A stretch of 64,000 nt of DNA, taken from the NCBI RefSeq assembly GCF_964355755.1, contig NC_092676.1, positions 6,425,888 to 6,489,887 on the forward strand. Reading direction: 5' to 3'. Source of the stretch: Antedon mediterranea (Eukaryota; Animalia; Echinodermata). The position numbers and the translations under genes were made by a program. Under the pieces are notes generated by a model. It saw nothing but the letters and a program-made list of their open reading frames with translations. It was not told the DNA's origin and searched no databases. Below, in pieces: positions 3,950-59,457 of the stretch (positions within the stretch are counted from its first letter, which is position 1; each line of letters opens with the position of its first letter).

Positions 3950-4088
3950 AACTGTTATGTTTAAATGTATTAATAAAGTGATGAACTTCTTCATTGTATG
4001 CTTGTAATTTTATCAACAAGTAATTTAAATAATGATTATAATTTGAGAGTGGCACGTTTATATGTTCCTTTTACAAGATTAACTAGTA
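3950..4088 (+). mobile_element. Decayed CR1/L2-group LINE 3' fragment, left part (host of the Helentron nest)
   Basis: Translates as MFKCINKV...NDYNLRVARLYVPFTRLTS, typical of the post-RT C-terminus of CR1/L2-group ORF2. Continues in frame at 59127. Confidence 0.75.
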
Positions 4089-6179
4089 ACTAGAATTTAA
4101 TTCGTCACTTTGACGAATTATAGGTGATCATTTTTATCATTTTAATGAAATTAATTTTTTTTAAACATGTACGTACGTTAACATACGATAGGAAAATGTT
4201 GATGTATGCCATCCTATTATACGCTTATAGTGCTGAGTTATGCCTATTATATGCCATATACAATGTACAGTATATACTGTATATCAATATACAGTGTAGC
4301 ATAGGTGAAATTATGGGACACACATCAAGTTCAAATTTTTTGGTATGATGGAATTATCAAAATAAACTCGAAGATGACAATTTCGAAAGATAATGAATTG
4401 AGCAAATAAATATAAGGATTGGAAGAGAATTTGACACGTAAAAGCGCAATGCGCGCTCTTTGAAATTTGTATAACTTCGACTAAAGAAATTTAAAAACTA
4501 CTTTTTAACTTCAACTGGCCATATGATAACATCACAACATCCGATAGGCTTAATTTTTATATGAATTCATATCTACATTTCATCAGCTTTCATAATAAAT
4601 TATAATCTTCAAGGTCACCTTTAATTTTGAGGAGCTATAAGATATTCAAATGTATGGTGTAGCTGAAATTATACGACCTAGGTTATTCAAGTTTTTACGC
4701 GTGATGACGTCATCAAAATAAAAATGTTGACAACTTATGAGAAAGATAATTAATTGAGCAAGCACATACTAAAATGTGTGCGAAAATCGGGCTCAAATAA
4801 CGGAGATGCGCTCTATTGAATGTGATAACCCATATACAGTGTAGCATAGGTGAAATTACGGGACCCACATCATGTTCTAATTTTTTGGTATGATGGAATT
4901 ATCAAAATAAACTCGAAGATGACAATTTCGAAAGATAATGAATTGAGCAAATAAATATAAGGAATGGAAGAGAATTTGACACGTAGAAGCGCAATGCGCG
5001 CTCTTTGAAATTTGTATAACTTCGACTAAAGAAATTTAAAAACTACTTTTTAACTTCAACTGGCCATATGATAACGTTATAACATCCGATAGGCATAATT
5101 TTTAAATAAATTCATATCTACATATTATCAGCTCTCATAATAAGTTACAAACATCAAGGTCAACTTTAATTCAGAAGAGCTATCAGATATTCAAATGTAT
5201 GGTGTACCTGAAATTACAAGACCTTGGTTATTCAAGTTTTTACGCGTGATGACGTAATCAAAATAAAATGTTGACAACTCATGAGAAAGATAATTAATTG
5301 TGCAAGCACATACTAAAATGTCTGCAAAAATCGAGCTAAAATAACGGAGATGCGCTCTATTGAATGTGATAACACATACAAAAAGATAAATATTACTAAT
5401 TTTTAAATTGAAGTGGCCATTTGATGACGTCATACCATTTTGAACGTCTAATGTGTATATATATTTATATCTACAACTTATTGGCTTCCATAATAAGTTA
5501 AAAAAATTGGGGGTCACCTGCCATTCTGAAGAGTTATATTCATTTTAAAAAGGCCTTATTTTTTACCATTTTCATCACTTTGATGCAATTAATTTGCGCA
5601 TTTTGTCATTTTTAACCTGCTCGTATAGCGTTATTTTAAGTCGGAACTGACTCAAATTTGGTGAATGTACTAAGGATGGTGAGTAGAATGAGATTTGTAA
5701 AAAAAAATTATATTTTTTACGCTTTTTAAGTATCGCACGCGCAAATATTTTTTTTTGCGCAGTAATTTTTTGAAACACGCAAATGGCCTAATTCATGCTC
5801 TAAATTGATCAAAACTTAATTTTGAGCATTTTAAATTTTTAACGCGCGATTTCGTGCGCATGACCCTACGTGCACGTGCGTTTTTATTTGCTAATATATT
5901 TACCCTTGACCAGAAGTTTACGTGTAGTGAATTTCATTAATATGTGATAATGAATTATGGAGATATGATTGATAATGTGATTTTGCAAAATGGCGTATAA
6001 ATGACGTCAAGGATGAGTTATCACGCTGAAAAGCTTATTAGGACTAAGTTAAAGTATTTGAAAGACATTGTGAAATTTTGGTAATCATTGACATTAAACT
6101 TTTTGAGATATTTGTTACACAAAATCTGTACAGAAAGAAATTGCGAAGAAACATTTTTTTTTGACAAAAACAATTCCTC
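4089..6179 (-). mobile_element. HINE subfamily A unit 1 (no cap; internal 545-bp duplication)
   Basis: Starts ACTAGAATTT-AATTCGTCActtTGACGAATT-A-TAGGTGATCATTT. 4287-4831 is repeated at 4832-5376. Ends CAATTCCTC|ACTAG. Confidence 0.88.
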
Positions 6180-7733
6180 ACTAGAATTTAATTCGTCACT
6201 TTGACGAATTATAGGTGATCATTTTTATCATTTTAATAAAATTAACATTTTTTAAACATGCACGTACGTTAACATAATGATCAGAAAATGTTGATTTATA
6301 CCATCCTATTATACGCTTATACACTAGTGCTGAATTGTGCCTATTATATGCCATATACATTATGTACAGTATATACTGTATATCTATATACAGTGTAGTA
6401 TTGGTGAAATTACGGACACACATCAAAATCTAACTTTTTGGTATGATGACATTATCAAAATAAACTTGTGGATAACAATACCGAAAGATAATGAATTGAG
6501 CAATAAAATATAACAATTGGAAGAAAATTTAGCACGTAGAAGCGCGGTGCGCGCTCTTTGAAATTTTTATAACTTTTACGAAAGAGATGAAAAAATTGCC
6601 TTTTAACTTCAACTGGTCATATGATAACGTCACAAGATTCGAAAGGCTTAATTTTTATATGAATTAATATCTACATTGAACCAGCTCTCATAATAAGTTA
6701 TAATTATCAAGGTCAACTTTAATTCAGAATAGCTGTAAGGTATTCAAATATACATTGTAGGTGAAATTACGTAACCACAGTTATTCACATTTTAAGACGT
6801 GATGACGTCATCAAAATGAAAATATTGGCAACTCATGAGTAACATACTTGGTTGAGGTAGAATATATTACAAATTAAAAGAAAATTGATCACAGATAAGC
6901 GAGTTTCACTCTGTTGAATATGGTGGTCTATGACAAAGGACGAAAAAACCCTATTTTAAAAATTCATGTGGCCAAATGATGGAGTCGTACCATTTTGTAC
7001 GTCTAATGTGTATATATATTTATATCTACAACTCATTGACTTCCATAATAAGTTAAAAAAATTGGGGGTCACCTTCCATTCTGAAGAGTTATCTTCATTT
7101 TAAAATGGCCTTATTTTTTACCATTTTTAACACTTTTGTACAATTAATGTGCGCATTTTTGTCATTTTCAATGTGCTCGCATAGCACTATTCCAAGTCGA
7201 AATGGACTCGAATTTGGTGAATGTACTATGAAAGATGAGTAGAATGCAATTTGTACAAAAAATTGTTATTTTTTACGCTTTCTATGTACGCACGCGCAAA
7301 AACGTGTTTTTGCGCACTAATTTTTTAAAACACGCAAATGGCCTAATTCATGCTCTAAATTGATCAAAACGTAATTTTGAGCATTTTAAATTTTTAACGC
7401 TCGATTTCACGCGCATGACCCAACGTGCGCGTGCGTTTTTATTTGCTAATATTTTTACCCTTGATCTGAAGTTTACGTGTAGTGAATTTCATTAATATGT
7501 GATAATTAATTATGGAGATATGATTGATAATGTGATTTCAAAAAATGGCGTATAAATGACGTAACGGATGAGTGATCACGCTGAAAAGCTTATTAGGACT
7601 AAGTTAAAGTATTTGAAAGACATTCAGAAATTTTGGTAATCATTGACATTAAACTTTTTGAGATATTTGTTACACAAAATCTGTACAGAAAGAAATTGCG
7701 AAGAAATATTTTTTTTTACAAAAACAATTTCTC
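6180..7733 (-). mobile_element. HINE subfamily A unit 2 (no cap)
   Basis: Same 3' terminus; body similar to unit 8; ends CAATTTCTC|ACTAG. Confidence 0.88.
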
Positions 7734-9300
7734 ACTAGAATTTAATTCGTCACTTTGACGAATTATAGGTGATCATTTTTATCATTTTAATGAAATTAAT
7801 TTTTTTTAAACATGTACGTACGTTAACATACGATAGGAAAATGTTGATGTATGCCATCCTATTATACGCTTATAGTGCTGAGTTATGCCTATTATATGCC
7901 ATATACAATGTACAGTATATACTGTATATCTATATACAGTGTAGCATAGGTGAAATTATTGGACACACATCAAGTTCAAATTTTTTGGTATGATGGAATT
8001 ATCAAAATAAACTCGAAGATGACAATTTCGAAAGATAATGAATTGAGCAAATAAATATAAGGATTGGAAGAGAATTTGACACGTAGAAGCGCAATGCGCG
8101 CTCTTTGAAATTTGTATAACTTCGACTAAAGAAATTTAAAAACAACGTTTTAACTTCAACTGGCCATATGATAACATCACAACATCCGATAGGCTTAATT
8201 TTAATATGAATTCATATTTACATTTCATCAGCTTTCATAATAAGTTATAATCTTCAAGGTCACCTTTAATTCTGAAGAGCTATAATATATTCAAATGTAA
8301 GGTGTAGCTGAAATTACACGACCTACGTTATTAAAGTTTTTACACATGATGACGTCATCAAAATAAAAATGTTGACAACTCTTGAGAAAGATAATTAATT
8401 GAGCAAGCACATACTAACATTTCGGCGAAAATCGGGCTCAAATAACGGAAATGCGCTCTATTGAATGTGATAACCCACACAAAAAGATAAAAATTACTAA
8501 TTTTTAAATTGAAGTGGCCATTTGATGACGTCATACCATTTTGTACGTCTAATGTGTACATGAATATGTATCTAAAACCCAATGGCTTCCCGAATAACTT
8601 AAAAAAATTGGGGGTCACCTGCCATTCTGAAGAGTTATATTCATTTTAAAAAGGCCTTATTTTTCACCATTTTCAGCACTTTGATGCAATTAATTTGCGC
8701 ATTTTGATATGTTTAACCTGCTCGTATACCGTTATTTTAAGTCGAAACTGACTCAAATTTGGTGAATGTACTAAGGATGGTGAGTAGAATGCGATTTGTA
8801 TAAAAAAATTGCAATTTTTACACTTTGTAAGTATCGCGCGTGCAAAATAATTTTTTTGCGCAGTAATTTTTTGAAACACGCAAATGGCCTAATTCATGCT
8901 CTAAATTGATTAAAACGTAATTTTGAGCTTTTTAAATTTTTAATGCGCGATTTCACGCGCATGACCATACGTGCGCGCGCGTTTTTATTTGCTAATATTT
9001 TTACCCTTGACCTGAAGTTTACGTGTAGTGAATTTCATAAATATGTGATAATGAATTATGGATATATGATTGATAATGTGATTTCACAAAATGGCGTATA
9101 CGTGACGTCACGGGTCAGTGATCACGCTGAAAAGCTTATTATGGCTAAGCTAAAGTATTTGAAAGACATTGTGAAATTTTTGTGATCATTGTTATTCAAC
9201 TTTTTGAGATATTTGTTACACAAAAAGTGTACAGAAAGAAAAAAAATAAAGATTTCATACAATAACAATAGGTGATCATTTTATTCTAAATGATCACCTA
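7734..9300 (-). mobile_element. HINE subfamily A unit 3 (complete)
   Basis: 3' terminus at 7734; cap hairpin TAGGTGATCATTT-tattct-AAATGATCACCTA at 9269-9300. Confidence 0.9.
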
Positions 9301-10858
9301 ACTAGAATTTAATTCGTCACTTTGACGAATTATAGGTGATCATTTTTATCATTTTAAAGAAATTAACATTTTTTAAACATGCGTGTACGTTAACATACGA
9401 TCGTAAAAAGCTGATGTACGCTATCCTATGACATGATGCATATATACTTATAGTGCTGAGTTGTACCTATTATGTGTCATATACAATATGTACAGTATAT
9501 ACTGTATATCTATATACAGTGTAGCATAGGTGAAATTACGGGACCCACATCATGTTCTAATTTTTTGGTATGATGGAATTATCAAAATAAACTCGAAGAT
9601 GACAATTTCGAAAGATAATGAATTGAGCAAATAAATATAAGGAATGGAAGAGAATTTGACACGTAGAAGCGCAATGCGCGCTCTTTGAAATTTGTATAAC
9701 TTCGACTAAAGAAATTTAAAAACTACTTTTTAACTTCAACTGGCCATATGATAACATCACTACATCCGATAGGCTTAATTTTTATATCAATTCATATCTA
9801 CATTTCATCAGCTTTCACAATAAGTTATAATCTTCAAGGTCACCTTTAATTCTGAAGAGCTATAAGATATTCAAATGTATGGTGTAGCTGAAATTACACG
9901 ACCTAGGTTATTCAAGTTTTTACGCGTGATGACGTAATCAAAATAAAATGTTGACAACTCATGGGAAAGATAATTAATTGAGCAAGCACATACTAAAATG
10001 TGTGCGAAAATCGGGCTCAAATAACGGAGATGCGCTCTATTGAATGTGATAACCCACACAAAAAGAAAAAAATTACTAATTTTTAAATTCAAGTGGCCAT
10101 TTGATGACGTCATACCTTTTTGTACGTCTAATATGTATATATATTTATATCTACAACTTATTGGCTTCCATAATAAGTTAAAAAAATTGGGGGTCACCTG
10201 CCATTCTGAAGAGTTATATTCATTTTAAAAAGGCCTTATTTTTCACCATTTTCATCACTTTGATGCAATTAATTTGCGCATTTTGTCATTTTTAACCTGC
10301 TCGTATAGCGTTATTTTAAGTCGGAACTGACTCAAATTTGGTGAATGTACTAAGGATGGTGAGTAGAATGAGATTTGTAAAAAAAAATCATATTTTTTAC
10401 GCTTTTTAAGTATCGCGCGCGCAAAATTTTTTTTTGCGCAGTAATTTTTTGAAACACGCAAATGGCCTAATTCATGCTCTAAATTGATCAAAACTTAATT
10501 TTGAGCATTTTAAATTTTTAACGCGCGATTTCACGCACATGACCCTACGTGCACGTGCGTTTTTATTTGCTAATATATTTACCCTTGACCAGAAGTTTAC
10601 GTGTAGTGAATTTCATTAATATGTGATAATGAATTATGGAGATATGATTGATAATGTGATTTTGCAAAATGGCGTATAAATGACGTCAAGGATGAGTTAT
10701 CACGCTGAAAAGCTTATTAGGACTAAGTTAAAGTATTTGAAAGACATTGTGAAATTTTGGTAATCATTGACATTAAACTTTTTGAGATATTTGTTACACA
10801 AAATCTGTACAGAAAGAAATTGCGAAGAAACATTTTATTTTGACAAAAACAATTTCTC
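9301..10858 (-). mobile_element. HINE subfamily A unit 4 (no cap)
   Basis: A-type 3' terminus; ends CAATTTCTC|ACTAG. Confidence 0.88.
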
Positions 10859-12442
10859 ACTAGAATTTAATTCGTCACTTTGACGAATTATAGGTGATCA
10901 TTGTTATCATTTTAATAAAATTAACATTTTTTAAACATGCATGTACGTTAAAATACGATCGTAAAAAGTTGATGTACGCCATCCTATGACATGATTGCAT
11001 ATACACTGTACTTATATCGCTGAGTTGTGCCTATTATGTGTCATACAATATGTACAGTATATACTGTATATCTATATACAGTGTAGCATAGGTGAAATTA
11101 CGGGACTCATATCGTGTTCTAATTTTTTGGTATGATGGAAATTTCAAAATAAACTCGAAGATGACAATTTCGAAAGATAATGAATTGAGCAAATAAATAT
11201 ATGGATTTGAAAGAAAATTTGACACGTAGAAGCGCAATGCGCGGTCTTTGAAATTCGTATAACTTTGACTAAAGAAATTTAAAAACTACTTTTTAACTTC
11301 AACTGGCCATATGATAACATCACAACATCCGATAGGCTTAATTTTACTATGAATTCATATCTACATTTCATCAGCTTTCATAATAAGTTATAATCTTCAA
11401 GGTCACCTTTAATTTAGAAGAGCTATAAGATATTCAAATGTATGGTGTAGCTGAAATTACACGACCTAGGTTATTCAAGTTTTTACGCGTGATGACGTTA
11501 TCAAAATAAAAATGTTGACAACTCATTAGAAGAATAATTAATTGAGCAAGCACATACTAAAAGTTGTGCGAAAATCGGGCTCAAATAACGGAGATGCGTT
11601 CTATTGAATGTGATAACCCACACAAAAAGATAAAAATTCCTAATTTTTAAATTCAAGTGGCCATTTGATGACGTCATACCATTTTGTACGTCTAATGTGT
11701 ATATACATTTGTATCTACAACTTATTGGCTTCCATAATAAGTTAAAAAAATTGGGGGTCACCTGCCATTCTGAAGAGTTATATTCATTTTAAAAAATCCT
11801 TATTTTTTACCATTTTTAGCACTTTTGTACAATTAATGAGCGCATTTTGTCATGTTTAACGTGCTCGTACAGCGCTATTTTAAGTCGGATTGGACTCAAA
11901 ATCGGAGAATGTACAAAGGATTGTGAGTAAAATGTGATGTATACATTAAATTTAATTTTTTACGCATTTTAAGAATCGCGTGCGCAAAAATGTGTTTTTG
12001 CGCAGTAATTTTTTGAAACACGCAAATGGCCTAATTCATGCTCTAAATTGATCAAAACGTAATTTTGACCTTTTTAAAATTTCAACGCGCGATTTCACGC
12101 GCATGAGCCTACGTGTGCGTGTGTTTTTATTTGCTAATATTTTTACCCTTGACCTGAAGTTTACGTGTAGTGAATTTCATAAATATGTGATAATAAATTA
12201 TGGATATATGATTGATAATGTGATTTCACAAAATGGCGTATACGTGACGTCACGGATGAGTGATCACGCTGAAAAGCTTATTATGGCTAAGTTAAAGTAT
12301 TTGAAAGACATTGTAAAATTTTTGTGATCATTGCTATTCAACTTTTTGAGATATTTGACGAACAAAAAGTGTACAGAAAGAAGAATAATAAAGATTTTAT
12401 ACAATAACAATAGGTGATCATTTTATTCTAAATGATCACCTA
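10859..12442 (-). mobile_element. HINE subfamily A unit 5 (complete)
   Basis: Both termini present; near-identical to unit 11. Confidence 0.9.
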
Positions 12443-14020
12443 ACTAGAATTTAATTCGTCACTTTGACGAATTATAGGTGATCATTTTTATCGCTTTACT
12501 TACATTAATATTTTTTAAACATGCACGTACGTTAACATACAATAGGAAAATGTTGATGTATACCATCCTGTTATACGCTTATAGTGCGGAGTTGTGCCTA
12601 TTATGTGTCATATACAATATGTACAGTATATACTATATATCTATATACAGTGTAGCATAGGTGAAATTACGGGACCCACATCATTTTAAAATTTTTTGGT
12701 ATGATGGAATTATCAAAATAAACTCGAAGATGACAATTTCGAAAGATAATGAATTGAGCAAATAAATATAAGGATTGGAAGATAATTTGACACGTAGAAG
12801 CGCAATGCGCGCTCTTTGAAATTTGTATAACTTTGACTAAAGAAATTTAAAAACAACGTTTTAACTTCAACTGGCCATATGATAACATCACAACATCCGA
12901 TAGGCTTAATTTTTATATGAATTCATATCTACATTTAATCAGCTTTCATAATAAATTATAATCTTCAAGGTCACCTTTAATTCTGAAAAGCTATAACATA
13001 TTCAAATGTATGGTGTAGCTGAAATTACACGACCTTGGTTATTAAAGTTTTTACACATGATGACGTCATCAAAATAAAAATGTTGACAACTCTTGAGAAA
13101 GATAATTAATTGAGCAAGCACATACTAAAATTTCGGCAAAAATCGGGCTCAAATAACGGAGATGCGCTCTATTGAATGTGATAACCCACACAAAAAGATA
13201 AAAATTACTAATTTTTTAATTGAAGTGGCCATTTGATGACGTCATACCATTTTGTACGTCTAATGTGTACATGAATATGTATCTACAACCCAATGGCTTC
13301 CCGAATAAGTTAAAAAAATTGGGGGTCACCTGCCATTCTGAAGAGTTATATTCATTTTAAAAAGGCCTTATTTTTCACCATTTTCAGCACTTTGATGCAA
13401 TTAATTTGCGCATTTTGTTATTTTTAACCTGCTCGTATAGCGTTATTTTCAGTCAGAACTTACTCAAATTAGGTGAATGTACTAAGGATGGTGAGTAGAA
13501 CGCGATTTGTATAAAAAAACTGCAATTTTTACGCTTTGTAAGTATCGCGCGCGCAAAATATTTTTTTTGCGCAGTAATTTTTTGAAACACGCAAATGGCC
13601 TAATTCATGCTCTAAATTGATTAAAACGTAATTTTGAGCTTTTTAAATTTTTACTGCGCGATTCCACACGCATGACCCTACGTGCGCGCGCATTTTTACT
13701 TGCTAATATTTTTACCCTTGACCTGAAGTTTACGTGTAGTGAATTTCATAAATATGTGATAATAAATTATGGATATATGATTGATAATGTGATTTCACAA
13801 AATGGCGTATACGTGACGCCACGGATGAGTGATCACGCTGAAAAGCTTATTATGGCTAAGTTAAAATATTTGAAAGACATTGTGAAATTTTTGTGATCAT
13901 TGCTATTCAACTTTTTGAGATATTTGACGAACAAAAAGTGTACAGAAAGAAGAATAATAATAACAATAAAGATTTTGTACAATAACAATAGGTGATCATT
14001 TTATTCTAAATGATCACCTA
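12443..14020 (-). mobile_element. HINE subfamily A unit 6 (complete)
   Basis: Both termini present. Confidence 0.9.
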
Positions 14021-15556
14021 ACTAGAATTTAATTCGTCACTTTGACGAATTATAGGTGATCATTGTTATCATTTTAATGAAATTAACATTTTTTAAACAT
14101 GCATGTACGTTAACATACGATCGTAAAAAGTTGATGTACGCCATCCTATGACATGATGCATACGCTTATATCGCTGAGTTGTGCCTATTATATGCCATAT
14201 ACAATATGTACAGTATATACTGTATATCTATATACAGTGTAGCATAGGTGAAATTACGGGACACACATCATGTTCTAATTTTTTGGTATAATGGAATTAT
14301 CAAAATAAACTCAAAGACGACAATTTCGAAAGATAATGAATTGAGCAAATAAATATAAGAATTGGAAGAGAATCTGGCACGTAGAAGTGCCATGCGCGCT
14401 CTTTGAAATTTGTATAACTTTGACGAAAAAGATGAAAAAACTACTTTTTAACTTCATCTGGCCATATGTTAACGTCACAACATCCGATAGGCTTGGTTTT
14501 TATATGAATTCATATCTACATTTCATCAGCTTCCATAATAAATTATAATCATCAAAGTAACCTTCAATTCTGAAGAGCTGTAAGATATTCAAATTTACGG
14601 CGAAGGTGAAATTACACGACCTACGTTATTCAAGTTTTTACGTGTGATGACATCATCAAAATGAAAATGTTGACAACTCATGAGAAAGATAAGTAACTGA
14701 GCAAGCATATGCTAAAATTTGTGCGAAAATCGGGCTCAAATAGCGGAGATGCGCTCTATTGAATGTGATAAACTACACAAAACGGAAAAAAATCCTAATT
14801 TTTAAATTGAAGTGGCCATTTGATGACGTAATACCATTTTGTACGTATAATGTGTATATACATTTGTATCTACTACTTATTGGCTTCCAAACTAAGTTAA
14901 AAAAATTGGGGGTCACCTGCCATTCTGAAGAGTTATATTCATTTTAAAAAGGCCCTACTTTTTACCATTTTTAGCACTTTTGTACAATTAATGTGCGCAT
15001 TTTGTCATTTTAAACGTGCTCGTATAGCGTTATTTTAAGTCTGAATGGACTCAAAGTCGGAGATTGTACTAAGGATTATGAGTAGAATGTGATGTACACA
15101 TCAAATTTTATTTTTTACGCTTTTTAAAAATTCCGTGCGCAAAAATATATTTTTGCGCAGTAATTTTTTAAAACACGCAAATGGCCTATTTTATGCTCTA
15201 AATTGATCAAAACTTAATTTTGAGCTTTTTAAAATTTTAACGCGCGATTTCACGTGCATGACCTTGAAAGACGTAAGTTTTTATTTGTTAATATTTTTAC
15301 CCTTCACCTGAAGTTTACCTATAGTGAATTTTATTGATATGTGATAAAGAGTTATGGAGATATGATTGATAGTGTGATTTCACAAAATCGCGTATACGTG
15401 ACGTCACGGTTGAGTGATCACGCTGAAAAGCTTATTATGGCTAAGTTAAAGTATTTGAAAGACACTGTGAATTTTTTGTGATCATTGCCATTCAACTTTT
15501 TGAGATAATTGTTACACAAAAAGTGTACAGAAAGAATAAAAAAAATAAAAATAAAA
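14021..15556 (-). mobile_element. HINE subfamily A unit 7 (cap displaced to 20020-20077)
   Basis: Body interrupted in the A-tract by the next ACTAG. Confidence 0.88.
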
Positions 15557-19950: not shown

Positions 19951-20077
19951 AAAAAAAAATAATAATAAAGATTTCATACAATAACAATAGGTGATCATTT
20001 TATTCTAAATGATCACCTAATAATAAAGATTTCATACAATAACAATAGGTGATCATTTTATTCTAAATGATCACCTA
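19951..20077 (-). repeat. Stack 1: two orphan subfamily-A 5' caps
   Basis: Two tandem copies of AAAGATTTCATACAATAACAATAGGTGATCATTTTATTCTAAATGATCACCTA. Confidence 0.92.
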
Positions 20078-42620: not shown

Positions 42621-42629
42621 CTACAGAAA

Positions 42630-42870: not shown

Positions 42871-42979
42871 TTTGTAGCCATACGTAACGATTTTTTATAG
42901 CATTTTACAGAATAAATAAATTAGTAATTGTTATAGAATTTGACACAAATTTGTGGTCTTGATTATTATACATACAGTA

Positions 42980-48900: not shown

Positions 48901-51900
48901 ATTAACCTCGGTAAAAAATGCTTTGACAAATGAAGAAACGTATCAAAGCGCCAAGGAACTTTTTCAAAGTTTAAATATTACTCAGGGTGCATATGAGGAT
49001 GCAAATAATTGTATAACTAATGAAGAAAAGATTGTTTTAAAGAGAAACCCCGAAGATGTGTGGGTAAATCAATACAATCCTTCCTTACTTAGAGCATGGA
49101 ATGCTAATATGGATATTCAGTACATTACCAGTGTATATGCATGTGTTACATATGTTATAGGATATATGTCAAAATCTGAACGGGAAATGGGCTTACTTTT
49201 ATCTCATGCAGCATCCGAAGTGAAAGAAGGAAATGAAAATGCCAGACAAAGCCTAAGTAAACTTGGTCATGTGTACATGAACAATCGAGAAGTATCTGCG
49301 CAAGAAAGTGTTTATCGTGTTTGTGGCTTGAGATTGAAAGAATGTTCAAGGAAAGTTGAATTTATCCCAGTAGGACCTAATCCTGTTAGAATGAGTTTAC
49401 CACTAAGTGTAATTAAAAACAAAGTGGATGATAATCAAAGTGCATGGTTGCCAAATAAGCTCGACAAATATAAAGCTCGACCAAATAATTCTGAATTTAA
49501 TACAATGTGTCTTGCAACATTTTGTTCTTATTACAGAATGTTAAGTACATCAGAAATGAAAGGAAACGTGCAAAGAAAGAACGTATTCCAGTTACAAAAA
49601 AAACTAGGATTCATCCAAAAAAGAACACGAACTGACAATGCTATAATAAGGTACCCTCGGTTTCCAATGAATACAGCATCTGAAAAATATTTTATGAGTA
49701 TATTGCAGTTATTTTTGCCATTTCGAACAGATAAACAGTTAAAACCATTGAAATTTCAAACATATCAAGAATTTTATGAGCTAGGATCTGTAAAATTATA
49801 TGGCAGTAAATTACAAAAAGTAAATGTTATAGTTGATGAAAACATGGAAAGGTATGACAAAACTGCAGATGCTATTAAACATGCAGAAGGGGTTTTAGCA
49901 AAATTTGGACCACAAGAAGATGCATGGGGTCTATTATGTCCGGAAAGTGAAAAGGAAAGATTAGAGAATCCAAAGCCAAATGTAGACGTTGATGATGAAG
50001 AAAATGAATTTTTTGTTCCAGATTTTGGCCTAAAAAAAAATGAAACATCTACAATAGAGTGTAACTCATCTAGTATTTCAAGACCGGAACTGAACAAAAT
50101 GATTCGATCTTTAAATAAACAACAAAAACAAATATTTTATAAGACAAGGCAATGGTGCTTGGATAAAGTTAATGGCAAACAACCTGAATCGTTTTACACT
50201 TTTATAACTGGAGGCGCTGGCACTGGAAAAAGCCATTTGGTTAATTGTATTTATAATGAAGCAACACGTATTCTCGGAAAAATGTTGGAAAATCCGGATG
50301 ATATGTCAATATTGAAACTAGCTCCTACAGGGATTGCAGCATATAATATTAAAGGTCATACCATTCATAGTGCTTTGTCTATTCCTATTCATATTTCACT
50401 TCCATATCAACCACTTGGAGAAGAAAAAATAAGTGCACTTCGTAATCAGTTAGGTCAATTGCAAATTGTTATTATAGATGAAATATCAATGGTAAATCAA
50501 AAGTTACTCTGGTACATCCACGGACGATTGCGGCAAATAAAGCAAGTACGTAATGATAGTGCATTTGGTAATATTTCAATAATTGCAGTTGGTGATTTTT
50601 ATCAGTTACCGCCTGTGAGGGGCACTTCTTTGTATAAAAACACATTGGAAAACTCATTATGGGTAGATAACTTTAAAAGAGTGCAGTTAGATGAAATCAT
50701 GAGGCAAAAAGAAGATAAAGAGTTTGCTGTACTTTTAAACAAATTGCGCACAAAAGAAAGAAATGATTGCTTGTCTGACAAAGATTTATCAGTTTTAAAA
50801 TCATGTGAAACAGGTGAACAATGTGACGATGCTGTTCATATATACCCATGTAATAAGCAGGTTAATGAATGGAATAAAACAATGTTGCATAAAACATGTT
50901 TAGATATTATATGCATTGAAGCAGAGGATACTGTAGTAAACAGCAAGAAACAAGACAAACATTGTGATAAACCTCGGAAATCATGTCAAACTAATTTATT
51001 AAATTATCTGTGGATTGCACTTAATGCCAGAGTGATGTTGATTAAAAATGTAGATGTTAAAAAAGGCTTAACAAATGGATGTATGGGACATGTGGAAGAA
51101 ATAATTAAGCCCAGTCCAAACGCTAAACCAATATCAATTAAAGTGAAATTTGATAACAAGGACATTGGTATTCAGGCAATTGAAATGTTTCAAGAATCTA
51201 TTGGAAAAAAATACAGTCGAAAGCAATTCCCACTCAAATTAGCATATGCATGCACAGTTCATAAAGTGCAAGGAATGACAATGAATAAAGCACTGGTTTG
51301 CCTTAAAAATACCTTTGCGCCTGGACAAGCATATGTAGCACTCAGTCGTGTTACCTCAATATCTGGACTTACCATTGAACATGTTAATTCTAAGTTGATT
51401 TATTGTGATCCTACTATAAAGGAATATTTAAACAAGATGAATTCATACATACAATGTGATAAAGAAGTTAATGATTCTGGTTCTGAATTTTCAATAATGT
51501 TACATAATATTCAAGGGCTTAAACAACATTTTGCTGATCTTCAGTGCAATGATTTGATTATGAATTCTACTACCATATGTCTAACTGAAACATGGCTAAA
51601 TAAGGATGATGATTTTGTTGACTTAAGTATAGAGCCGTATAAATTCTATCACCAAGCAAGATATGACTCATATTCTAATAAAAATGATTACTTAAAAAAT
51701 CAGGCTCATGGTGGAGTTGCAGTCTATACTAAGAACAAATTTTCAAGCAGGTTAGACATAGGTATTAACGACATAGAGGTAATTTCATTTTTAATAACAT
51801 GTCCAATTTCAGTTGCTGTATCAGTAATTTATAGACCTCCGAGCTATGATATTAAACAATTTTGTCAAAATTTGAGGAAGTTATTAAAAAAGGTGCATAA

Positions 51901-52138
51901 AGTAAGTACAAAATGTATCATAATGGGCGACTTTAATGAAAATCTTTTCAAACAACCTTCCAAAGTGAATATTTTAATGACAGAGAGTGGTTATCAACAA
52001 CATGTTACAAGTTCTACTACTGAAAGTAATACATTGATTGATCATGTATATAGCAAAGGTCTAGATTCAATGCAGGCACATGTAATTCCAATTTATTATA
52101 GTTACCATGAGGCCATTCAAATTAAATTTGGATTATAA
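42980..52138 (+). CDS. Helentron/Helitron2 RepHel polyprotein (PHD, C76-like DUB, OTU, Zn finger, HUH Rep, Pif1-family helicase, AP endonuclease)
   Basis: Uninterrupted frame (open from 42953, first ATG 42980). Motifs: PHD CGLC..CDCC..H..C..CSMC; GSFNQG..GKQC..FDPH; GDGNCFYRAIS..HFNVV; IRGTPPYW, PTFFLSFS, EFQMRGSPHVH, YVIGYMSK; GGAGTGKS, IIDEISM, GDFYQLPPV, TVHKVQGMT, YVALSRV; HNIQGL, LTETWL, IYRPP, GDFN, IDHVY, SYH. Confidence 0.95.
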   Translation: MDTQLITVVVTMLFLMLLLMMWCLCTNHKDVTSKEYNNDNTPGKVNNSIIYKTEVTDVPDQCCLPTNVKNVSTLNMDEKDTHTDICEFIKKIVDDIVNVSSGTAVASEFKKCGLCNIEYIADENYVSCDCCSKFYHVTCVRQMFEGKLCDSRVIWICSMCGNSNFANNMLGEIGIACHFNRYMILEHDESNAKFEEFTENEQNWKSNQRNVTKTNTNSQCQQTESENSLGREWIKVRSRKNTSNRKQGGKKRGNKNRKKRVINGIIIELGVTYIGKAVNDFYEKRNKKLHENVDREKIPDNSQTILNEKVDVDVHSPTSDASEVTTITNTIQQLSGGGFNTKQPRKKGRFVKRSNKKKSQEDNDNHKMDEDISKSFISDHLGNDDNSKVICNEDNVYKVASDEPKSNSKINQLRLDSSCDVTDHEVLIIDEEQTKTSKETIRENTRPTNNFKQYNMNDDNSVDIKVSTNECKISDDNTKNVASFKQYKSVVNPCNSITNNRTIAQGSFNQGHSRFGYARGKQCVANSLVAIVYSTKRNGNEFYKNDLDTILTLGNELYYYIQKDSTMDEDLLMISELPKKLDMLDSKFLISPKESVFGIIDGSLESMAEYGALSLKQALEQELHQHDACFMNFNRSTFAIIKRVNGFLIFDPHARDCVGCVSEHGKSILIYSTSWQGVYSYCLKLARSMNCNLHETEFELTGVNVQNESMFLCSSSSVTLDDNCELNNSENCDVNAPGTSSQFKCSKTLPNNNIDSTIKDNKHSNKKDDVSTSNGCQTDDEIEIVNVQYGERPDKNFKFVPILEAQRKSMCHKVGINCEHTGRNCGINRTSHIGHPCQIKNITGDGNCFYRAISYIISGTENNHLILRKAIGNHLLETDDLFSSTLSVEYRTVMEYVIKKRVMDNGTWASNTEISAMANLLNTDIYSFNDQLLTWQMFSAKNPGKINEVTTDNGMYILYTRNVHFNVVESVDFNLNYVPETITIVDSDDVDSSSEISVDPSVMKNNLTKYNNTRKRKEISHEILEDAIGPKQKRSKNFEGSCSNKIKTIRDNKTTIERNKRLENKKRMRTTRSNDSTTNVEKHNKAEVQRKKYKNDSVYREEKKRKVKEAQRIKYADDNYKLSKRKENRERQQKAYRCDPNYNLKVRSKMKQNDNIKLDYRTTKKAKSVQYYRLNERFRQNLKEKRKNRYQTDLIFRQNFKQNNKQNMAQKYMNNLQFRQNLIQKLASKYRNNSTFRQNLSQKLAAKYRNNSTFRQNLKRKYRSILKQDLGEKYRIDLKFRQSCKQRFTEKYHSNTTFRQSCKKKFNDKYHSDSKFKTNCNQRFTKKYHGDSLFRKNVVLKNMRHRKIRRAEKRNFEFVLQNFRESTSHGPEYVCCVCFKMLFKNQVVKCTKAKYEYRTCINEKYLHICNNECNNPCQFAKSPRCTLWICFTCHKKLLKGKVPAEANSNNLELQEIPPELKCLNNLEQHLIGLNIPFMKLMNLPKGGQHGIHGPVVCVPSNTIETVKILPRPEADDQLISVKLKRKLSYKGYYKYKFVNTSNVIQALEYLQDHNKWYFDVAIDENWHNYLSKENIESKTTNQQTCVENNEEEEEDRLCGVAFDTSLQPVDRRQNLVDEYFRDIICCAPCENNSPIALLSNENNEAKSFPVLFPTGQPTFHDTRDVKITLGRYLHNRLMHVDNRFAKNTEFIFYAQSIYELQQILSSISIALRKGSSKKDNFSKVTVSDLKNINKIEEILKSDKGYKFLKQIRGTPPYWQATQKDVLAMVRQIGKPTFFLSFSSADLRWKEIMTTLLSQTGDQRNIDDLEWADKCNLLKSNPVTVARMFDKRFHTFLKKVILSETQPIGKVTDYFYRIEFQMRGSPHVHMLVWVENAPVFNEDEDKKVIEFIDKYISCSVPRQFVDSEMNEIVTSVQIHSKRHSKSCKKKGTNCRFNFPRQPSEKTFVMRPTIVDKNNDDDNNDNDNANKQAQELLTSVKNALTNEETYQSAKELFQSLNITQGAYEDANNCITNEEKIVLKRNPEDVWVNQYNPSLLRAWNANMDIQYITSVYACVTYVIGYMSKSEREMGLLLSHAASEVKEGNENARQSLSKLGHVYMNNREVSAQESVYRVCGLRLKECSRKVEFIPVGPNPVRMSLPLSVIKNKVDDNQSAWLPNKLDKYKARPNNSEFNTMCLATFCSYYRMLSTSEMKGNVQRKNVFQLQKKLGFIQKRTRTDNAIIRYPRFPMNTASEKYFMSILQLFLPFRTDKQLKPLKFQTYQEFYELGSVKLYGSKLQKVNVIVDENMERYDKTADAIKHAEGVLAKFGPQEDAWGLLCPESEKERLENPKPNVDVDDEENEFFVPDFGLKKNETSTIECNSSSISRPELNKMIRSLNKQQKQIFYKTRQWCLDKVNGKQPESFYTFITGGAGTGKSHLVNCIYNEATRILGKMLENPDDMSILKLAPTGIAAYNIKGHTIHSALSIPIHISLPYQPLGEEKISALRNQLGQLQIVIIDEISMVNQKLLWYIHGRLRQIKQVRNDSAFGNISIIAVGDFYQLPPVRGTSLYKNTLENSLWVDNFKRVQLDEIMRQKEDKEFAVLLNKLRTKERNDCLSDKDLSVLKSCETGEQCDDAVHIYPCNKQVNEWNKTMLHKTCLDIICIEAEDTVVNSKKQDKHCDKPRKSCQTNLLNYLWIALNARVMLIKNVDVKKGLTNGCMGHVEEIIKPSPNAKPISIKVKFDNKDIGIQAIEMFQESIGKKYSRKQFPLKLAYACTVHKVQGMTMNKALVCLKNTFAPGQAYVALSRVTSISGLTIEHVNSKLIYCDPTIKEYLNKMNSYIQCDKEVNDSGSEFSIMLHNIQGLKQHFADLQCNDLIMNSTTICLTETWLNKDDDFVDLSIEPYKFYHQARYDSYSNKNDYLKNQAHGGVAVYTKNKFSSRLDIGINDIEVISFLITCPISVAVSVIYRPPSYDIKQFCQNLRKLLKKVHKVSTKCIIMGDFNENLFKQPSKVNILMTESGYQQHVTSSTTESNTLIDHVYSKGLDSMQAHVIPIYYSYHEAIQIKFGL

Positions 52139-53859
52139 TCTTTATATTAACTCAGATGTTTAATCTTAATCGGAATTGTTTTAAGGAAGGTTAAACAAAC
52201 TTATAAACAGAACTTTAATAAAGAAAATCATAAAACGAACATAAAATAGAACTGGATAAAAACAAACAAATTTTAAAAAGAACTAAAAAACAATAGCAAT
52301 TCTCTGCAGAAAGAAATACCCACTAAAACTAACATACTGTACGTGACATACAAGAATGTTATATAGGTTACATTTAATTTTTTTGGAATCCCATTTTAAT
52401 AGTACAGTATTATAGTTATTAATTATGTCTATAGTTAGGAAAAGTCTGGATCGAATCCAAACAGACGATATTTATTATAGTTATTATATAAGGTGTTGTT
52501 GTGTTGTTGTAAGGCCATTTCAAATTATATTGGGATTATAATCTTTACATTTATTCCTATGTCCTATTATTATGAAAAATTAAGAAAAAAAAAAAGAATT
52601 TTACAAACAGAACTTAATAAATCTTTCTTCATAGGAGACAAGCATAACTGCCAAAATCTGTATGGAGGAATACATTATTATCAGGTGAGTAAACCCTCAT
52701 GTTAGGGATTATTGGAATTAACGCCTCTATGCAGAGTAGTTTTCTGACTGCTCCGCCACCTTTGATATGAGATCTTTTCATATTTTGTGCGGTCATCTCT
52801 GGAAAAGATCTCGTTCGGAATAGTATTATCTCATTCACATATATATAAAATAATGAATTAAATATGAATTTCAAAAATGCTATGATACACAGATAGTGTG
52901 TATATAACAACCTCATTATCTATTAAATAAATAAGTTAATAAAACTGTTAAAAAAACATTTCATTTGATACGATTAACAATTTGATTAGACATATTTTAA
53001 TGTATACCTTTTTTATGGTACTTGTTTTTCTTTCTATTCAGATAGCATTTATAATAATTCAACACAAGTAGGCTTCTTATGCAAGTGTTACGGAGTGTAA
53101 TGAAATTAAATGGTTTCAAATTGTAATCAATGTTTGTGGTCAAGCAAAATGAGGTCCATTACAAGAATTGAAGACAGTCATAGATATATTTATAAAAGAA
53201 ATAATTACGGACTTCAGAAAAGAACCCTTTGTGCATAATTATGTTGTTATTGATGATGCTACTACCCGTAGAAGTATATTGCAATAGACAACACATTATA
53301 ATTATTGGTGTATTATTTTAATACAAATTGTATAAGTAAGGTCACATGTAGTGCGGCAACTTAAACAATACCGCGTAAAAATACTTTGATTATACGTCCT
53401 ATCATTATTTTTAATAAATGTGTTTATAAATAAATAGTCTTATAATTATTATATTTTAGCAAAAACAAATCTTTCTTTTGTACATATAATTCACTATTTA
53501 ATAGTTTCTTCTTTTATTTCCTCTTTATTTCCTTTTTTGGCTGCTTGTGTATCCTGTTTTTGTATTTATTTATGTTTTAGCTATTTTTTGGTAGTCCAAT
53601 GGCTAGTTTTATGACAGATAGAAGTGTTCACGTAGAGTATTCAATGCCACGTCTTGATGGCGAATTTTGCATAAACCAAAAAATTATCCATGTGAAAAAA
53701 TCAATATAATTGTAGGCCTAATATAATTGTTTATCCATAGACGAATTAATTTGCAAAATATGTGTATGATATGAAAAAAATATACAATTTTTATTATGTA
53801 AACTATTAAATGAAATGAGTTTAATCTACACAGTTTGAATAATTATTAACACACATTGT

Positions 53860-54705
53860 TGAATTGACATTATAATGTTCAAACTTGAAATAGAAACAGG
53901 ATATTAGATAACCAAAATTACAAACCAATCGGAGAATCAAATGGAATATTCTGATTTAAAACATATTAAAATGAAGTCACTCTGATATAACATATAATAT
54001 TTCTAGATGCGCGTTCTTAAATGGAATGAAAATCCGATTTTACTTGACCTGGCCAGATGACGTCACAAATCCAATAGGAAAATGTTTTCATGAATTCATA
54101 TCTACAATTTAACAGCTTCCATATTAAGTTTTATGGCTATCACTTTAAATTTGGAGAGAGTTATGAGAGATGGATGTATATTATAAAGATAAAATAAGTG
54201 ATCCAAGTTGTTCCAATTTTTAGACATGATGACTTTATAAAAAATAAAATATTTTTAAATCAGAAGACAGAAAATTGATCATAATATATACCGTAGTTGA
54301 GCTGAACTCTGTCTATATTTGTGCCATATCCACGTGCATGTACGTTAAAAATTATGCACATAAAAAAATTAGGCTATGTCATTATGACCTGAAGAATATA
54401 AATTCTGTCTATTTTGTGTCTTATAGTATCAGTATACCATATACTCTATACATTATTATACAGTCTAGCATAATTAAAATATTAGTCTCGACTTCAATTC
54501 TTCAATTTTTAATATGATGACCCATCAAAATGAAACAGGAAGATAGCAACTTCGGAAGACAATCAACTGATCACAAACATATTAACATGTTAAAGAATTT
54601 GAATACGTAAAATATAGATGCTCTTTTAAATGAGATGAAGTATGACGCAAAAGATGAAAATACGACTTTTTTTATTCAACTGACCATATGATGACGTCAC
54701 AACAC
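53860..54705 (-). mobile_element. Old degenerate HINE-body fragments downstream of the ORF
   Basis: Diverged matches such as CTGGCCAGATGACGTCACAAATCCAATAGG, CACGTGCATGTACGTT, GACCATATGATGACGTCACAAC; no termini. Confidence 0.7.
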
Positions 54706-56009
54706 GCACGTACACTAAATTAAGTAATTATTGCTAGGTAAATAGGGTCAAAGAATATATATCACAAGAATGAGTATTCCGCGATTTTTGCATGAGAAAT
54801 TTGTAACACAGAGCTCCAGTGAATGAGGCCCGCCCTCATAAGGGTGGATGTATACATACTAAATAAAACTTGATTTAATAGATATTATACATGTCACATT
54901 AAATAGAATTATGATAATAGTTTTTGCAATTGTAAACTATTTTATAATACATATTTATTAACAAACTAGTGTACATTCACTTTTACAGACAATTATTTAC
55001 TAACATGCTAAGTTAGTTCACAAAAAAGGCCTAACACAGCAACACCAAAAATCAACGAATCGTTACTCAGCACGGCCTATTCATTACCATTGCCGTGTAC
55101 TACTCTACGCCCGGTAAATTAAGTATTGTTTTTATGATATAAATTAGTATAAAATACATGTTATTAATAGGACAAAATGATAAATGTCTTTAACATTTAT
55201 TTGTTTTACCAGAAACAAGTTAAATATAGGAATATTATTAAACTATCCTTCGTGAAAACGCGTAAACACCAACACGCCCGGTCACGCTATCGTAGCGCCC
55301 GGTTGATAAAGCAAACTGTTTATACGGCAGTTTTTACTAAATAAATTGCATAAAAATAACAATTAAATATCCAAATAGTATTTAACATGATGTTGGCATC
55401 ATGGATCTATTCTTTAATCCATGTTGGCATGTAGTTGTAGTAGTTTATCCTGAAAATGCTACCGGTGGTCTAGCCTTTGATTATTGAAACCGTCACAAAA
55501 AGTTGTATACATCCCAGATACATCCACACTTATGGCGGCGCCCTACCACATGGACAATATTACTGTTACAGGGAAAATCGCGGATTACTCATTCTTGTGA
55601 TATATATTCCTTGATAGGGTTTATGTTTATGATGACAGGTAGTGTCAGGTTCGGCGAATGTAAAATTCCGTCGACTTCAAGTATAATGTAAATAGATAAA
55701 TGATGAAGGTACAAGTAGGTTAAATTCTCATGAGCCTTTTGTTCATATAAGGTAGAACTTATAATTACAAGATACAACACAATTAAGTAGAAATATATAT
55801 ATATATATATTCACGTCCCACTAGCTTGGAATCAAAACGAAGAGTGCCAGAGGCCTACTAGGTCCCTGGATAAGTTGTTTACCACAATTAAGCGAGTAGT
55901 TGAATTACACGCACAGTAAAATAGCCAATCAGAACCTAGTCTTATTTGGCCTGCTACATTATAGAAATAGGTAGGAAATAAATTATTTGCGCTATACCAT
56001 TACGTCACG

Positions 56010-57477
56010 GTCAGTATAAACAGTTAAATATGTATACATAAATTATTATATACAGTGTAGAATAGGTAAAATTACGGGACCCGCCATTTATTCCAATTTT
56101 TAACATGGCGACGGTAACAAAATGAAACACTAAGTTAGCAATTTCGGAAGGAAATTATATCAGCAACAACATATTAACGTGTAGAAGAAATTTGAATACG
56201 TAAAATATAGATGCGCGCCCTTTTAAATGTGATGAACTTTGGCGTAAAATATGAAAATACGACTTTTTGTATTCAACTGGCCATATGATGACGTCAAAAC
56301 ATCTGATTGGCAAAATGTTTACATGATTTCGTATCTACAATCCAATAGCTTCCAGAAAACGTTTTAATTGTGATTATCACATTTTATTCTTACGAGCTAT
56401 AATATATTTAAATTTAATGTAAAGATGAAATTAATGCCACACGTAATATAAATTTTTAGTTATGATGACGTCATAAAAATTAAATTATTTTTAATTCATG
56501 CGAAAGATAGTTGATTGACCTAGACAATATCACAATCGGGGTGAAAATGGAAAACGGATAAGTGGAGATGCGCTCTATTAAATGTGATGAGCTATGACGA
56601 AAGATACAAAAATCCTATATTTTATATTTGCGTGGCTATACGATGACGTCACAATGTTCGGTTAGCCATATTAATACCTGATCCGATATCTACAACTCAT
56701 CAACTTCCAGAATATATCATCCACAAAAAGTTGACCGTGTAGTTTTGAAATTACGACTGTTTAAAAAAAGGTATACTTTTGACAAATTTTGACGAATTTT
56801 TGAACTTTTCCATCAAAAACACACGTAAATGATCCAATTCGACGTGCTCGTATGACGTAATTTTAAGTCAAAATTATTTAAAAGTTGGTAAAATTACTAG
56901 AAAAGGCTGGAAAAACCTAAATTACTCGAAAAAAATTGTTTTCAACGCTACGTGCGCACCACGCGCGTAAAAATATTCGCGCGCGTGGGAATTTTTTGCA
57001 TGCTCAAAATGACATGAAACGCGTAGAAAGTTGATTAGAAATTGATTTTTTGTATTTTAAAATTTTAAACGCGCGTGCGCGCGTAACTTCGTGTGAAACA
57101 TGCCATTTTTTTTCCACAGTCGGTTAGCGCAGAATATAAATTAAACTTTTGCTAAGTTTCAATTTAAATTGTTATATGGTTTTTGATTAATGTTAAATAC
57201 GCTAAATTCGTTAAAATGCGCGTAAGTCATGTTGCGCAATTCTGACGTCATTCAAAAATAAAAAAGCACAACTTCACGTGAATGCCCATATGTTGACAAA
57301 GTTATGAAATGTTAACTGTACACGTTTTTGAGATATGCTCTGCACAAAAATGACAGAAAGAAAGAAGAATACAGAAAAAAAAAAAAGATGATGAAACAGG
57401 ACAGTTACAAGGAGTTATCCGTGAAAGCGGATGAAACAGGACAGTTACAAGGAGTTATCCGTGAAAGCGGATAACTA
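56010..57477 (-). mobile_element. HINE-type 5' arm (subfamily E/B3) with cap but no adjacent 3' end
   Basis: B-like body from ~56010; cap GAGTTATCCGtgaaagCGGATAACTA with a 40-bp tandem duplication (57390/57430). Confidence 0.85.
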
Positions 57478-57596
57478 AAAAAGATGATGTTGATCTCGTA
57501 CAATCACAAGAGGTTATCCTGCAACTTCGTTGCGGATAACCAAAAATATTGATCCCATACAATAACAAGGAGTTATCCGCCAAGTGCGGATAACTA
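57478..57596 (-). repeat. Stack 3: two orphan 5' caps (B2, B1)
   Basis: Match the caps of complete B2 and B1 units. Confidence 0.92.
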
Positions 57597-59126
57597 ACTA
57601 GAATTTAATTCGTCACTTTGACGAATTATAGGTGATCATTTTTATCGCTTTACTGACATTAATATTTTTTAAACATGCACGTACGTTAACATACAATAGG
57701 AAAATGTTGATGTATACCATCCTGATATACGCTTATAGTGCTGAGTTGTGCCTATTATGTGTCATATACAATATGTACAGTATATACTGTATATCTATAT
57801 ACAGTGTAGCATAGGTGAAATTACGGGACCCACATCATGTTCAAATTTTTTGGTATGATGGAATTATCAAAATAAACTCAAAGATGACAATTTCGAAAGA
57901 TAATGAATTGAGCAAATAAAAATAAGGATTGGAAGATAATTTGACACGTAGAAGCGCAATGCGCGCTCTTTGAAATTTGTATAACTTTGACTAAAGAAAT
58001 TTAAAAACAACGTTTTAACTTCAACTGGCCATATGATAACATCACAACATCCGATAGGCTTAATTTTTATATTAATTCATATCTACATTACATCAGCTTT
58101 CATAATAAGTTATAATTTTCAAGGTCACCTTTAATTCTGAAGAGCTATAATATATTCAAATGTAAGGTGTAGCTGAAATTACACGACCTACGTTATTCAA
58201 GTTTTTACGCGTGATGATGTCATCAAAATAAAAATATTGACAACTCCTGAGAAAGATAATTAATTGAGCAAGCCCATCCTAAAATTTGTGCGCAAATCAG
58301 GCTCAAATAACGGAGATGGGCTCTGTTGAATGTGATAACCCACACAAAAACATAAAAATTACTAATTTTTAAATTCAAGTGGCCATTTGATGACGTCATA
58401 CCATTTTGTACGTCTAATGTGTATATACATTTATATCTACAACTTATTGGCTTCCATATTAAGTTAAAAAAATTAGGGGTCATCTTCCATTCTGAAGAGT
58501 TATATTCATTTTAAAAAGGCCTTAATTTTTACCATTTTTAGCACTTTTGTACAATTAATGTGCGCATTTTGTCATTTTTAACGTGCTCGTATAGCACTAT
58601 TTTAAATCGAAATGGACTCACAATTTACGCTTTCTAAATACGCACGTGCAAAAACGTGTTTTTGCGCAGTAATTTTTTAAAACACGCAAATGGCCTATTT
58701 TATGCTCTAAATTGATCAAAACTTAATTTTGAGCTTTTTAAAATTTTAACGCGCGATTTCACGTGCATGACCTTGAAACACGTAAGTTTTTATTTTTTAA
58801 TATTTTTACCCTTCACCTGAAGTTTACGTATAGTGAATTTTATTGATATGTGATAAAGAGTTATGGAGATATGATTTATAGTGTGATTTCACAAAATCGC
58901 GTATACGTGACGTCACGGTTGAGTGATAACGCTGAAAAGCTTATTATGGCTAAGTTAAAGTATTTGAAAGACACTGTGAATTTTTTGTGATCATTGCCAT
59001 TCAACTTTTTGAGATAATTGTTACACAAAAAGTGTACAGAAAGAATAAAAAAAAAAAAAAAAATAATAATAATAAAGATTTCATACAATAACAATAGGTG
59101 ATCATTTTATTCTAAATGATCACCTA
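57597..59126 (-). mobile_element. HINE subfamily A unit 22 (complete)
   Basis: Both termini present; small deletion near 58620. Confidence 0.9.
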
Positions 59127-59457
59127 ATAAATGTTTTATTTCAATAGCTGGACCTGAACTATGGAACGATCTCCCTGTTGTTAAAATAAAACTTTCTGTA
59201 TCTTTAATTACTTTAAAAAAATCTGTAAAACGTTACCTATTAGCCATTTAGAAAACTTACTTTTGTTATTCTCAGTATATTATCTCTTTCCTTTTTTGAC
59301 TTATTTTATTGTTATTGTTTTATACAGTATTTCTTTTTATGTATTTTGCATATTTGTATTGTTGTAGGGGCCCTCATGAGACAAGCTATTGCTTCTAGTG
59401 TGGGCCCCAGTTATTGTCAAATAACTGAATAAACCTGTATGAATGAATGAATGAATG
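59127..59457 (+). mobile_element. Decayed CR1/L2-group LINE 3' end, right part with 3'UTR and (GAAT)n tail
   Basis: KCFISIAGPELWNDLPVVKIKLSVSLITLKKSVKRYLLAI* (stop 59249-59251), then a GGGCCC...GGGCCC stem, AATAAA and (GAAT)4. Confidence 0.8.

Follow-up and report, generated by a model that had tools for sequence, protein, structure and literature searches.

Self-insertion, stacked 5' ends and reversed open reading frames (ORFs) are already known from the rolling-circle transposons of Fusarium and maize. Here we describe a 55-kb nest of such elements in Antedon mediterranea (assembly GCF_964355755.1, contig NC_092676.1), contained in a window of 64,000 nt whose positions are used throughout. 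It consists of 22 non-autonomous units, all on the same strand, and of a 21-kb composite, segment X, which holds an autonomous Helentron, H; the whole nest interrupts a fragment of a long interspersed nuclear element (LINE). It probably grew by repeated rolling-circle insertion at the 5' ends of resident elements. The kind of arrangement is known, and the locus is a clear example of it by its depth, the exact closure of its parts, its empty allele and its intact reversed Helentron.

The units have much in common with the HINE/DINE-1 elements as described in the available text of PMC4067079: subterminal inverted repeats (subTIRs) of 12-14 bp, a 5' inverted repeat, a 3' stem-loop, a T-rich target left unaltered and an ambiguity of the terminal Ts. 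Unlike the elements of that description, the ends in the nest have the CTAG of canonical Helitrons, four families with 22 copies in all are stacked at one site, and the 5' end of four copies lacks a matching palindrome.

The 5' termini of the Fusarium FoHeli elements are repeated over 31-85 nt, one insertion lies 2 bp from another copy, and self-insertion was proposed to explain both the stacked 5' termini and the reversed ORFs (PMC5148889, main part). The nest shares with FoHeli, as presented there, the nested copies, the short repeated 5' termini (52-69 nt here) and an ORF that is reversed relative to the outer ends. However, the FoHeli models in that part of the paper were derived from few cases and from end products, whereas here split bodies and their remainders are both present, five levels deep; also unlike FoHeli as described there, the inner element has intact subTIRs and an empty allele is available. 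Maize Helitrons tend to land within or close to other Helitrons, and their composites begin at an inner 5' end (PMC3288121, accessible sections); these are canonical HLE1 elements, and the same sections give for them no constant distance to the 5' end, unlike in this nest. For Helraiser, bypass of the 3' end and head-to-tail circles are reported in the accessible portion of PMC4778049. In the literature searched, mainly open-access main texts, no paper described a fixed offset of 50-70 nt or a nest of this depth; relevant data on multiple termini may be contained in the supplements of PMC5148889. Three further papers (PMC13085455, PMC11934779, PMC13286980), in their available parts, have little bearing on the nest. 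For the self-insertion models proposed for stacked 5' ends and reversed ORFs, the nest is a case resolved to the base, together with its empty allele, and the two sharp offsets from the 5' end, 0 and 52-69 nt, are testable predictions. The locus also suggests that a 55-kb presence/absence variant, satellite-like in look, can arise from about twenty separate insertions.

The insertion site and its empty allele

The nest occupies 4090..59127 on the minus strand (55,038 bp, equally drawable as 4089-59126), as given by exact tiling and by the empty allele. On the left, the host sequence ACTAGTA (4082-4088) is directly followed by an element end at 4089/4090; on the right, the final 5' palindrome of the nest ends at 59126. 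An earlier note, made from the sequence of the window, had joined 4088 to 59127 and read a continuous ORF2 frame across the junction; the join does restore this frame, with the stop codon at 59249-59251. The frame is lost when the join is moved by one base; the equivalents 4087/59126 and 4089/59128 stay open, and so do in-frame joins that are shorter by 3 or 6 nt. Thus the frame alone cannot fix the boundary of the nest, although the note had taken it as sufficient. The positions themselves are right, as follows from the empty-allele DNA contig.

A search with 59128-62200 yielded eight sequencing runs from three studies, four of which were compared with the window over 3640-4230. The empty allele, for which the note had suggested searching reads, was found in run X5 (sample S2, the second sample of the species). 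A contig of this run, 471 letters long, aligns to 3700-4089 with 10 differences; some 280 letters of it fall in unique flank, covered by a single contig in both X1 and X5. Beyond 4089 it has 81 further letters. The 30 visible ones match the empty site at 27 positions without a gap and the filled site at 11; the three mismatches to the empty site are all within the first nine letters. The evidence is a single contig with a depth of 6.9, in one of the four runs compared, among the contigs listed. Since it crosses the site without a gap, both boundaries are correct and no host base was gained or lost. The 55-kb block is absent from the same position in the second sample, and the empty allele confirms the earlier claim of one insertion point in the 3' fragment of a LINE with no net change of the host. 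The empty form is not a splice product, as the ends of the nest are not GT..AG on either strand.

The filled junction is bridged by none of the contigs listed, and the filled allele rests on the assembly of the window; in sample S1 the flank contig ends at 4086. One possibility is that the nest is an assembly artefact, in which repeat copies from several loci were strung together at one site. The missing bridge would agree with it, as would the difference of about 1% between H of the window and the compared contigs. However, units of one family are mostly 1-16% apart, the remainders of split elements close in order and base-exact with bodies up to 34 kb away, and both flanks belong to one LINE copy. 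Thus an artefact is very improbable.

The left LINE piece (3984..4088, plus strand) comprises C-terminal codons of ORF2, including the host ACTAGTA, and is delimited by the frame and by the start of the match in other copies. The right piece (59128..59457, plus strand) holds the end of ORF2, a 3' untranslated region (UTR) with a stem-loop, and a (TGAA)x4 tail at 59440-59455, in agreement with the tetranucleotide tail noted earlier. The match to other LINE copies sets in at 3984, and the host is therefore a fragment of about 440 bp, truncated at its 5' end. The 3' UTR, the short tandem tail and the dispersed 5'-truncated copies are characters of a LINE. The fragment has in common with the 3' ends of L2/CR1-like LINEs the GPxxWNxLP motif at the C-terminus of ORF2 and the microsatellite tail, and differs from them by its length of only about 440 bp and by having no reverse transcriptase (RT) domain. 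The label CR1/L2 thus stands for a likeness of the ORF2 C-terminus and not for an established clade.

The right half (40 aa) matched five unnamed proteins with E-values up to 0.001, three of them with the same C-terminal motif. One of the five, P0006, has nine longer relatives among 90 candidates, one of which (P0008) contains RVT_1. The connection of the LINE with RVT_1 is indirect, from P0006 to P0008, and a direct tblastn of P0008 gave an E-value of 0.014. Neither half had a match in Pfam, and of two candidates for a longer relative of the right half none scored. Protein tests of the register across the junction were mixed and are not used as support for it. The join aligns with P0006 pairwise without gaps, with a score that is raised by the left half and equalled by 25 of 2000 shuffles; alignment with P0003 needs gaps (151 of 2000 shuffles); and an ungapped profile of seven of the 11 proteins examined failed to pick out the true register, a shift of +3 scoring -6.7 vs -8.4 (739 of 5000 shuffles). 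The region just left of the LINE (3898-3983) has motifs in common with the LINE 3' UTR and ends with AATAAA; it may be what is left of a second retroposon's tail.

With each insertion the plus strand gains two As. In every one of the 22 units, CTAG is followed by a T when read on the unit's own strand; in seven it is a single T. The ends would most simply be 5'-TT...CTAG-3', placed before a host T, so that the LINE site would be A^T. The T|T target of the A|A (T|T) insertion assigned earlier fits equally well, as does a 2-bp TT duplication, since all three readings give identical letters; the absence of host change stands. The same ambiguity of the terminal Ts is noted for HINEs in the available text of PMC4067079. 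The host ACTAGTA had also been seen as a mimic of the CTAGT end of the elements, which is not supported: CTAG is present in the empty allele as well, and its next base is different. It is not an element-derived duplicate either, as the empty allele has equal length. This CTAG is located 3-6 nt beside the cut and not at it. None of the seven nested targets has CTAG within 8 nt. Of 1885 comparable flank sites, 48 have CTAG at such a distance, so that it is uncommon, but this is a single case. It is read as a coincidence: the motif belongs to the LINE and lies to one side of the insertion point.

Units, joints and split elements

The nest contains 22 minus-strand ends with a subTIR, a stem-loop and CTAG: 11 of family A, one of family E, eight of family B and two of family C. 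Together with segment X (21,001 bp) they make 23 units that tile 4090-59127 with zero bases left over. Ten family-A elements of about 1.55 kb and the family-E element (18637-19951) occupy 4090..21661, eight family-B elements (four B1, three B2, one B3) and two family-C elements occupy 21662..36292, and the last family-A element, which is complete and whose 5' palindrome forms the right boundary, occupies 57598..59127, all on the minus strand. Copies of family A are 84-99% alike, and A and B are about 70% alike. The four families, with two different subTIRs, use the same sites.

The units are non-autonomous Helentron-type (HINE) elements. Their subTIRs are 12-13 bp long in family A and 14 bp in B1, asymmetric and, as in HINEs, at least 11 bp. 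A stem-loop is present inside the 3' end of all 22; the five that were folded have -8.0 to -10.6 kcal/mol for 60 nt. The ORF list of the window has no ORF of at least 150 aa inside them. Insertion, again as in HINEs, was at T-rich sites without modification of the target, as seen in the empty allele and in the seven restored nested hosts. The 5' end is a palindrome matching the element's own subTIR in 16 of 22 units and another common 5' end in four, and is missing in two (B30966 and C33917). The alternative terminus without a matching palindrome occurs in four family-A copies (6180, 7734, 10859, 17109) with different neighbourhoods.

Thirteen joints are exactly end-to-end, eight of them at palindromic 5' ends, four at the other 5' end and one to X, and ten top-level elements use the one LINE bond. 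Seven elements are split; counted from the 5' end, the breaks are at 52, 54, 58, 65, 66, 67 and 69 nt. The split bodies and the 5' remainders close in last-in-first-out order, base-exact, over distances up to 34 kb. The remainders are stacked on the minus strand at 19952..20078 (A17110, 69 nt, and A14022, 58 nt), at 36293..36477 (B32396, 66 nt, B29440, 67 nt, and B27905, 52 nt) and at 57479..57597 (B26378, 65 nt, and B21662, 54 nt). All three rejoined B1 units are identical to an intact B1 across the last 130 nt; one rejoined B2 has three substitutions and the other a 3-nt gap; the two rejoined A units differ from an intact copy in the A tract only. The best pairing of bodies with remainders is on the last-in-first-out diagonal in six of seven rows. 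No interruption was found elsewhere in the units, despite about 400 A/T-then-T sites in each.

Growth by repeated insertion at resident 5' ends builds on the empty allele, the exact tiling, the 13 end-to-end joints and the position of the seven splits (52-69 nt inside a 5' end), all of them directly observed. The first element would have inserted before a host T, and each resident end would then have become a favoured target. As RepHel, the Rep-helicase protein, would nick element termini anyway, exact end-to-end joints could follow. The T-rich tract inside the 5' palindrome may be exposed single-stranded when a resident end fires, which would create the window of 52-69 nt. It is likely that some units, namely the two without 5' ends, came in as composites through bypass of a 3' end.

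The nested targets have 9-16 T in 16 and the LINE target 7 T in 16. A T-rich preference is described for these elements in the available text of PMC4067079, and across the runs the flanks of A-type ends are A-rich on the plus strand (4087/4088, agreement about 0.5). A plain preference of this kind, in very many genome copies of elements that bring T tracts on one strand, would involve no recognition of ends and would explain the single orientation as well. However, it leaves unexplained the 13 exact joints and the ten top-level elements at a moderately T-rich LINE bond, and under a T-matched null the presence of all seven breaks in a window of 45-75 nt has a product of about 5e-4 (post hoc). 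It is thus an unlikely explanation on its own. The exact end-to-end joints are a stronger argument for end-directed targeting than this null; we infer such targeting, which is not cleanly separated from T-rich preference.

Neighbouring copies are no more alike than random pairs (p = 0.79 for ten A copies and p = 0.68 for eight B copies, against random order), and thus the nest is not one amplified monomer; a single-monomer rolling-circle array is ruled out by this test. B21662 and B23196 have no differences over 1534 bp, whereas other B1 pairs differ at 9-12 sites. B23196 is situated within the 5' tract of B21662, the outermost bracket around the B block. Since the outermost element is identical to B23196, nine or more later events occurred before either of them mutated, unless conversion homogenised them. 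B1 copies differ by less than 1%, while the flanks of the two alleles differ at 10 positions in 390. A4090 (4090-6180) is a mosaic: the 3' 743 nt are like A7735 (98.6%) and the rest, from position 198, like A9302 (98.9%). It resembles a deleted copy of the adjacent pair A7735/A9302, which points to copying of a dimer.

The mosaic A4090, the identity of B21662 and B23196, and the two units without 5' ends would also be expected if the nest had been mostly assembled elsewhere or on circles, had arrived in one or few blocks and had then undergone unequal exchange or gene conversion. A review of plant elements (PMC12628747) covers rolling-circle arrays that have several 5' ends. Neighbours, however, are no more alike, copying from the outer 5' end must bypass about 20 terminators, and the nested order still requires earlier end-directed insertion somewhere. 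Arrival in blocks is therefore improbable as the main source of the nest.

Several observations weigh against growth at resident 5' ends. The events are non-independent if blocks moved as composites, as the mosaic A4090 suggests. B26378 scores better with another B2 remainder (1.77 vs 1.65). The window of 45-75 nt is post hoc and is the T-richest part of the unit; the strictest threshold puts 27 of 41 sites in it (0.66^7 = 0.054). Helraiser insertions did not cluster near donor sites in 701 events (PMC4778049, accessible portion). The evidence comes from a single locus, and the movement of X as a unit is presumed, its comparison with the runs covering 36455-42250.

The autonomous Helentron and segment X

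Segment X (36478..57478) consists of H on the plus strand, 3.5 kb of passenger DNA and, at 56013-57478 of the minus strand, an element of B type from whose 3' end about 180 nt are missing. The Helentron H (36478..52472, plus strand, about 16 kb) has a putative 5' end between 36478 and 36496 and a putative 3' end near 52470. Its 5' subTIR, TTCCTAACTATAG, lies at 36496..36508 (plus strand) and contains an internal palindrome. The 3' subTIR (52429-52441), an exact inverted copy that starts 290 nt past the RepHel stop, and a weak stem-loop (52444-52466) together occupy 52429..52466 of the plus strand. An exact 13-bp inverted pair of this kind occurred in none of 465 control windows. The stem-loop has a fold of -3.3 kcal/mol for 66 nt.

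The RepHel open frame (42944..52138, plus strand, 3064 codons, first ATG at 42980) contains the domains Herpes_teg_N, OTU, DUF6570 (PF20209, 2e-20), Helitron_like_N (HUH), PIF1 and AP endonuclease (PF03372, 6e-9), with catalytic motifs in place. The Rep-helicase fusion is seen from PF14214 (5e-36) and PF05970 (1e-27), with HVH and Walker A and B present. The frame is antisense to all 22 units. The 13-mer of H has no match with up to two mismatches in any unit, whereas elements of one family share at least 11 bp of identical subTIR in the classification given in the available text of PMC4067079. With its own 13-bp subTIRs that match no unit, RepHel belongs to the separate element H. Thus the gene is inside the nest, as had been stated, but not a member of the array families, being carried by an opposite-strand Helentron with other subTIRs. 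RepHel as coding core of a unit of type A or B was rejected, as no A or B end in its orientation lies downstream and subTIRs of its own were found.

H has in common with HLE2 subgroup b (HELIANO; available text of PMC11417382) a RepHel with DUF6570, AP endonuclease, Herpes_teg_N and OTU, as well as short inverted repeats. Unlike the members described there, it lies backwards inside a non-autonomous nest, and the likeness is one of domain content. As an intact, low-copy, spliced Helentron, H is a candidate for biochemical work.

The spliced leader of RepHel (37062..42179, plus strand) has seven GT..AG joints in run X5, which are absent from the other three runs; presumably X5 is RNA. The H family is spliced, and the joints say nothing of this particular copy. 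The comparison of H with the runs covered 36455-42250. Contigs of S1 differ from H of the window by about 1%, with 3-4.5 times the depth of the unique flank, depth not being copy number. An X5 contig on 36476-36961 continues to the left into other sequence, as read from the record coordinates, which fits a true end near 36478. Organism B covers 40335-42250 at 93% likeness, but not 36455-37600. A partial A/B-like non-autonomous element is present within the first intron of H (38491..39212, plus strand).

Segment X stops at a weak hairpin and CTAT before T. Read on the minus strand, it fits the rule of the 22 units; a reading on the plus strand would make it an insertion at A|A. Since X on the minus strand obeys the unit rule, read-through from the B-type end is favoured. 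A B-type 5' end without its own terminator would then likely have read through 3.5 kb of flank and the whole of H backwards. A broader reading, to which we give somewhat less than an even chance, is that Helentron ends may serve as landing pads across families, through the nick site and the unwound first 50-70 nt, so that growth could run away to tens of kilobases on one haplotype. The same reading would have a non-autonomous 5' end carry an intact, expressed H backwards, which is the intermediate predicted by the reversed-ORF model.

Several minor features were seen in and near X. Tandem arrays with 14-bp and 21-bp units are found at 42322-42867, in the part of the leader region that immediately precedes the start of RepHel. 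The protein has, close to its N-terminus (43300-43460), a Cys/His pattern without a Pfam report, which we take to be PHD finger-like. Just past the 3' subTIR of H, 52510-52620 contains a diverged copy of the end of the RepHel frame (84% over 51 nt), possibly a relic of a related Helentron. Rearranged B-type pieces, 70-80% diverged, lie at 54026-54704. They are followed at 54749-55613 by an 865-bp inverted-repeat element with terminal inverted repeats of about 40 bp that start with CAA, and with a target duplication of 7 bp (54742-54748 and 55614-55620); we assume that it is P-element-like. At the B-type end of X, an exact 40-bp tandem duplication (57390-57472) is situated beside the 5' palindrome. 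Outside the nest, unrelated tandem arrays are found at 88-590, 622-780, 3153-3592 and 62302-62435, with periods of 20, 27, 134 and 21 bp.

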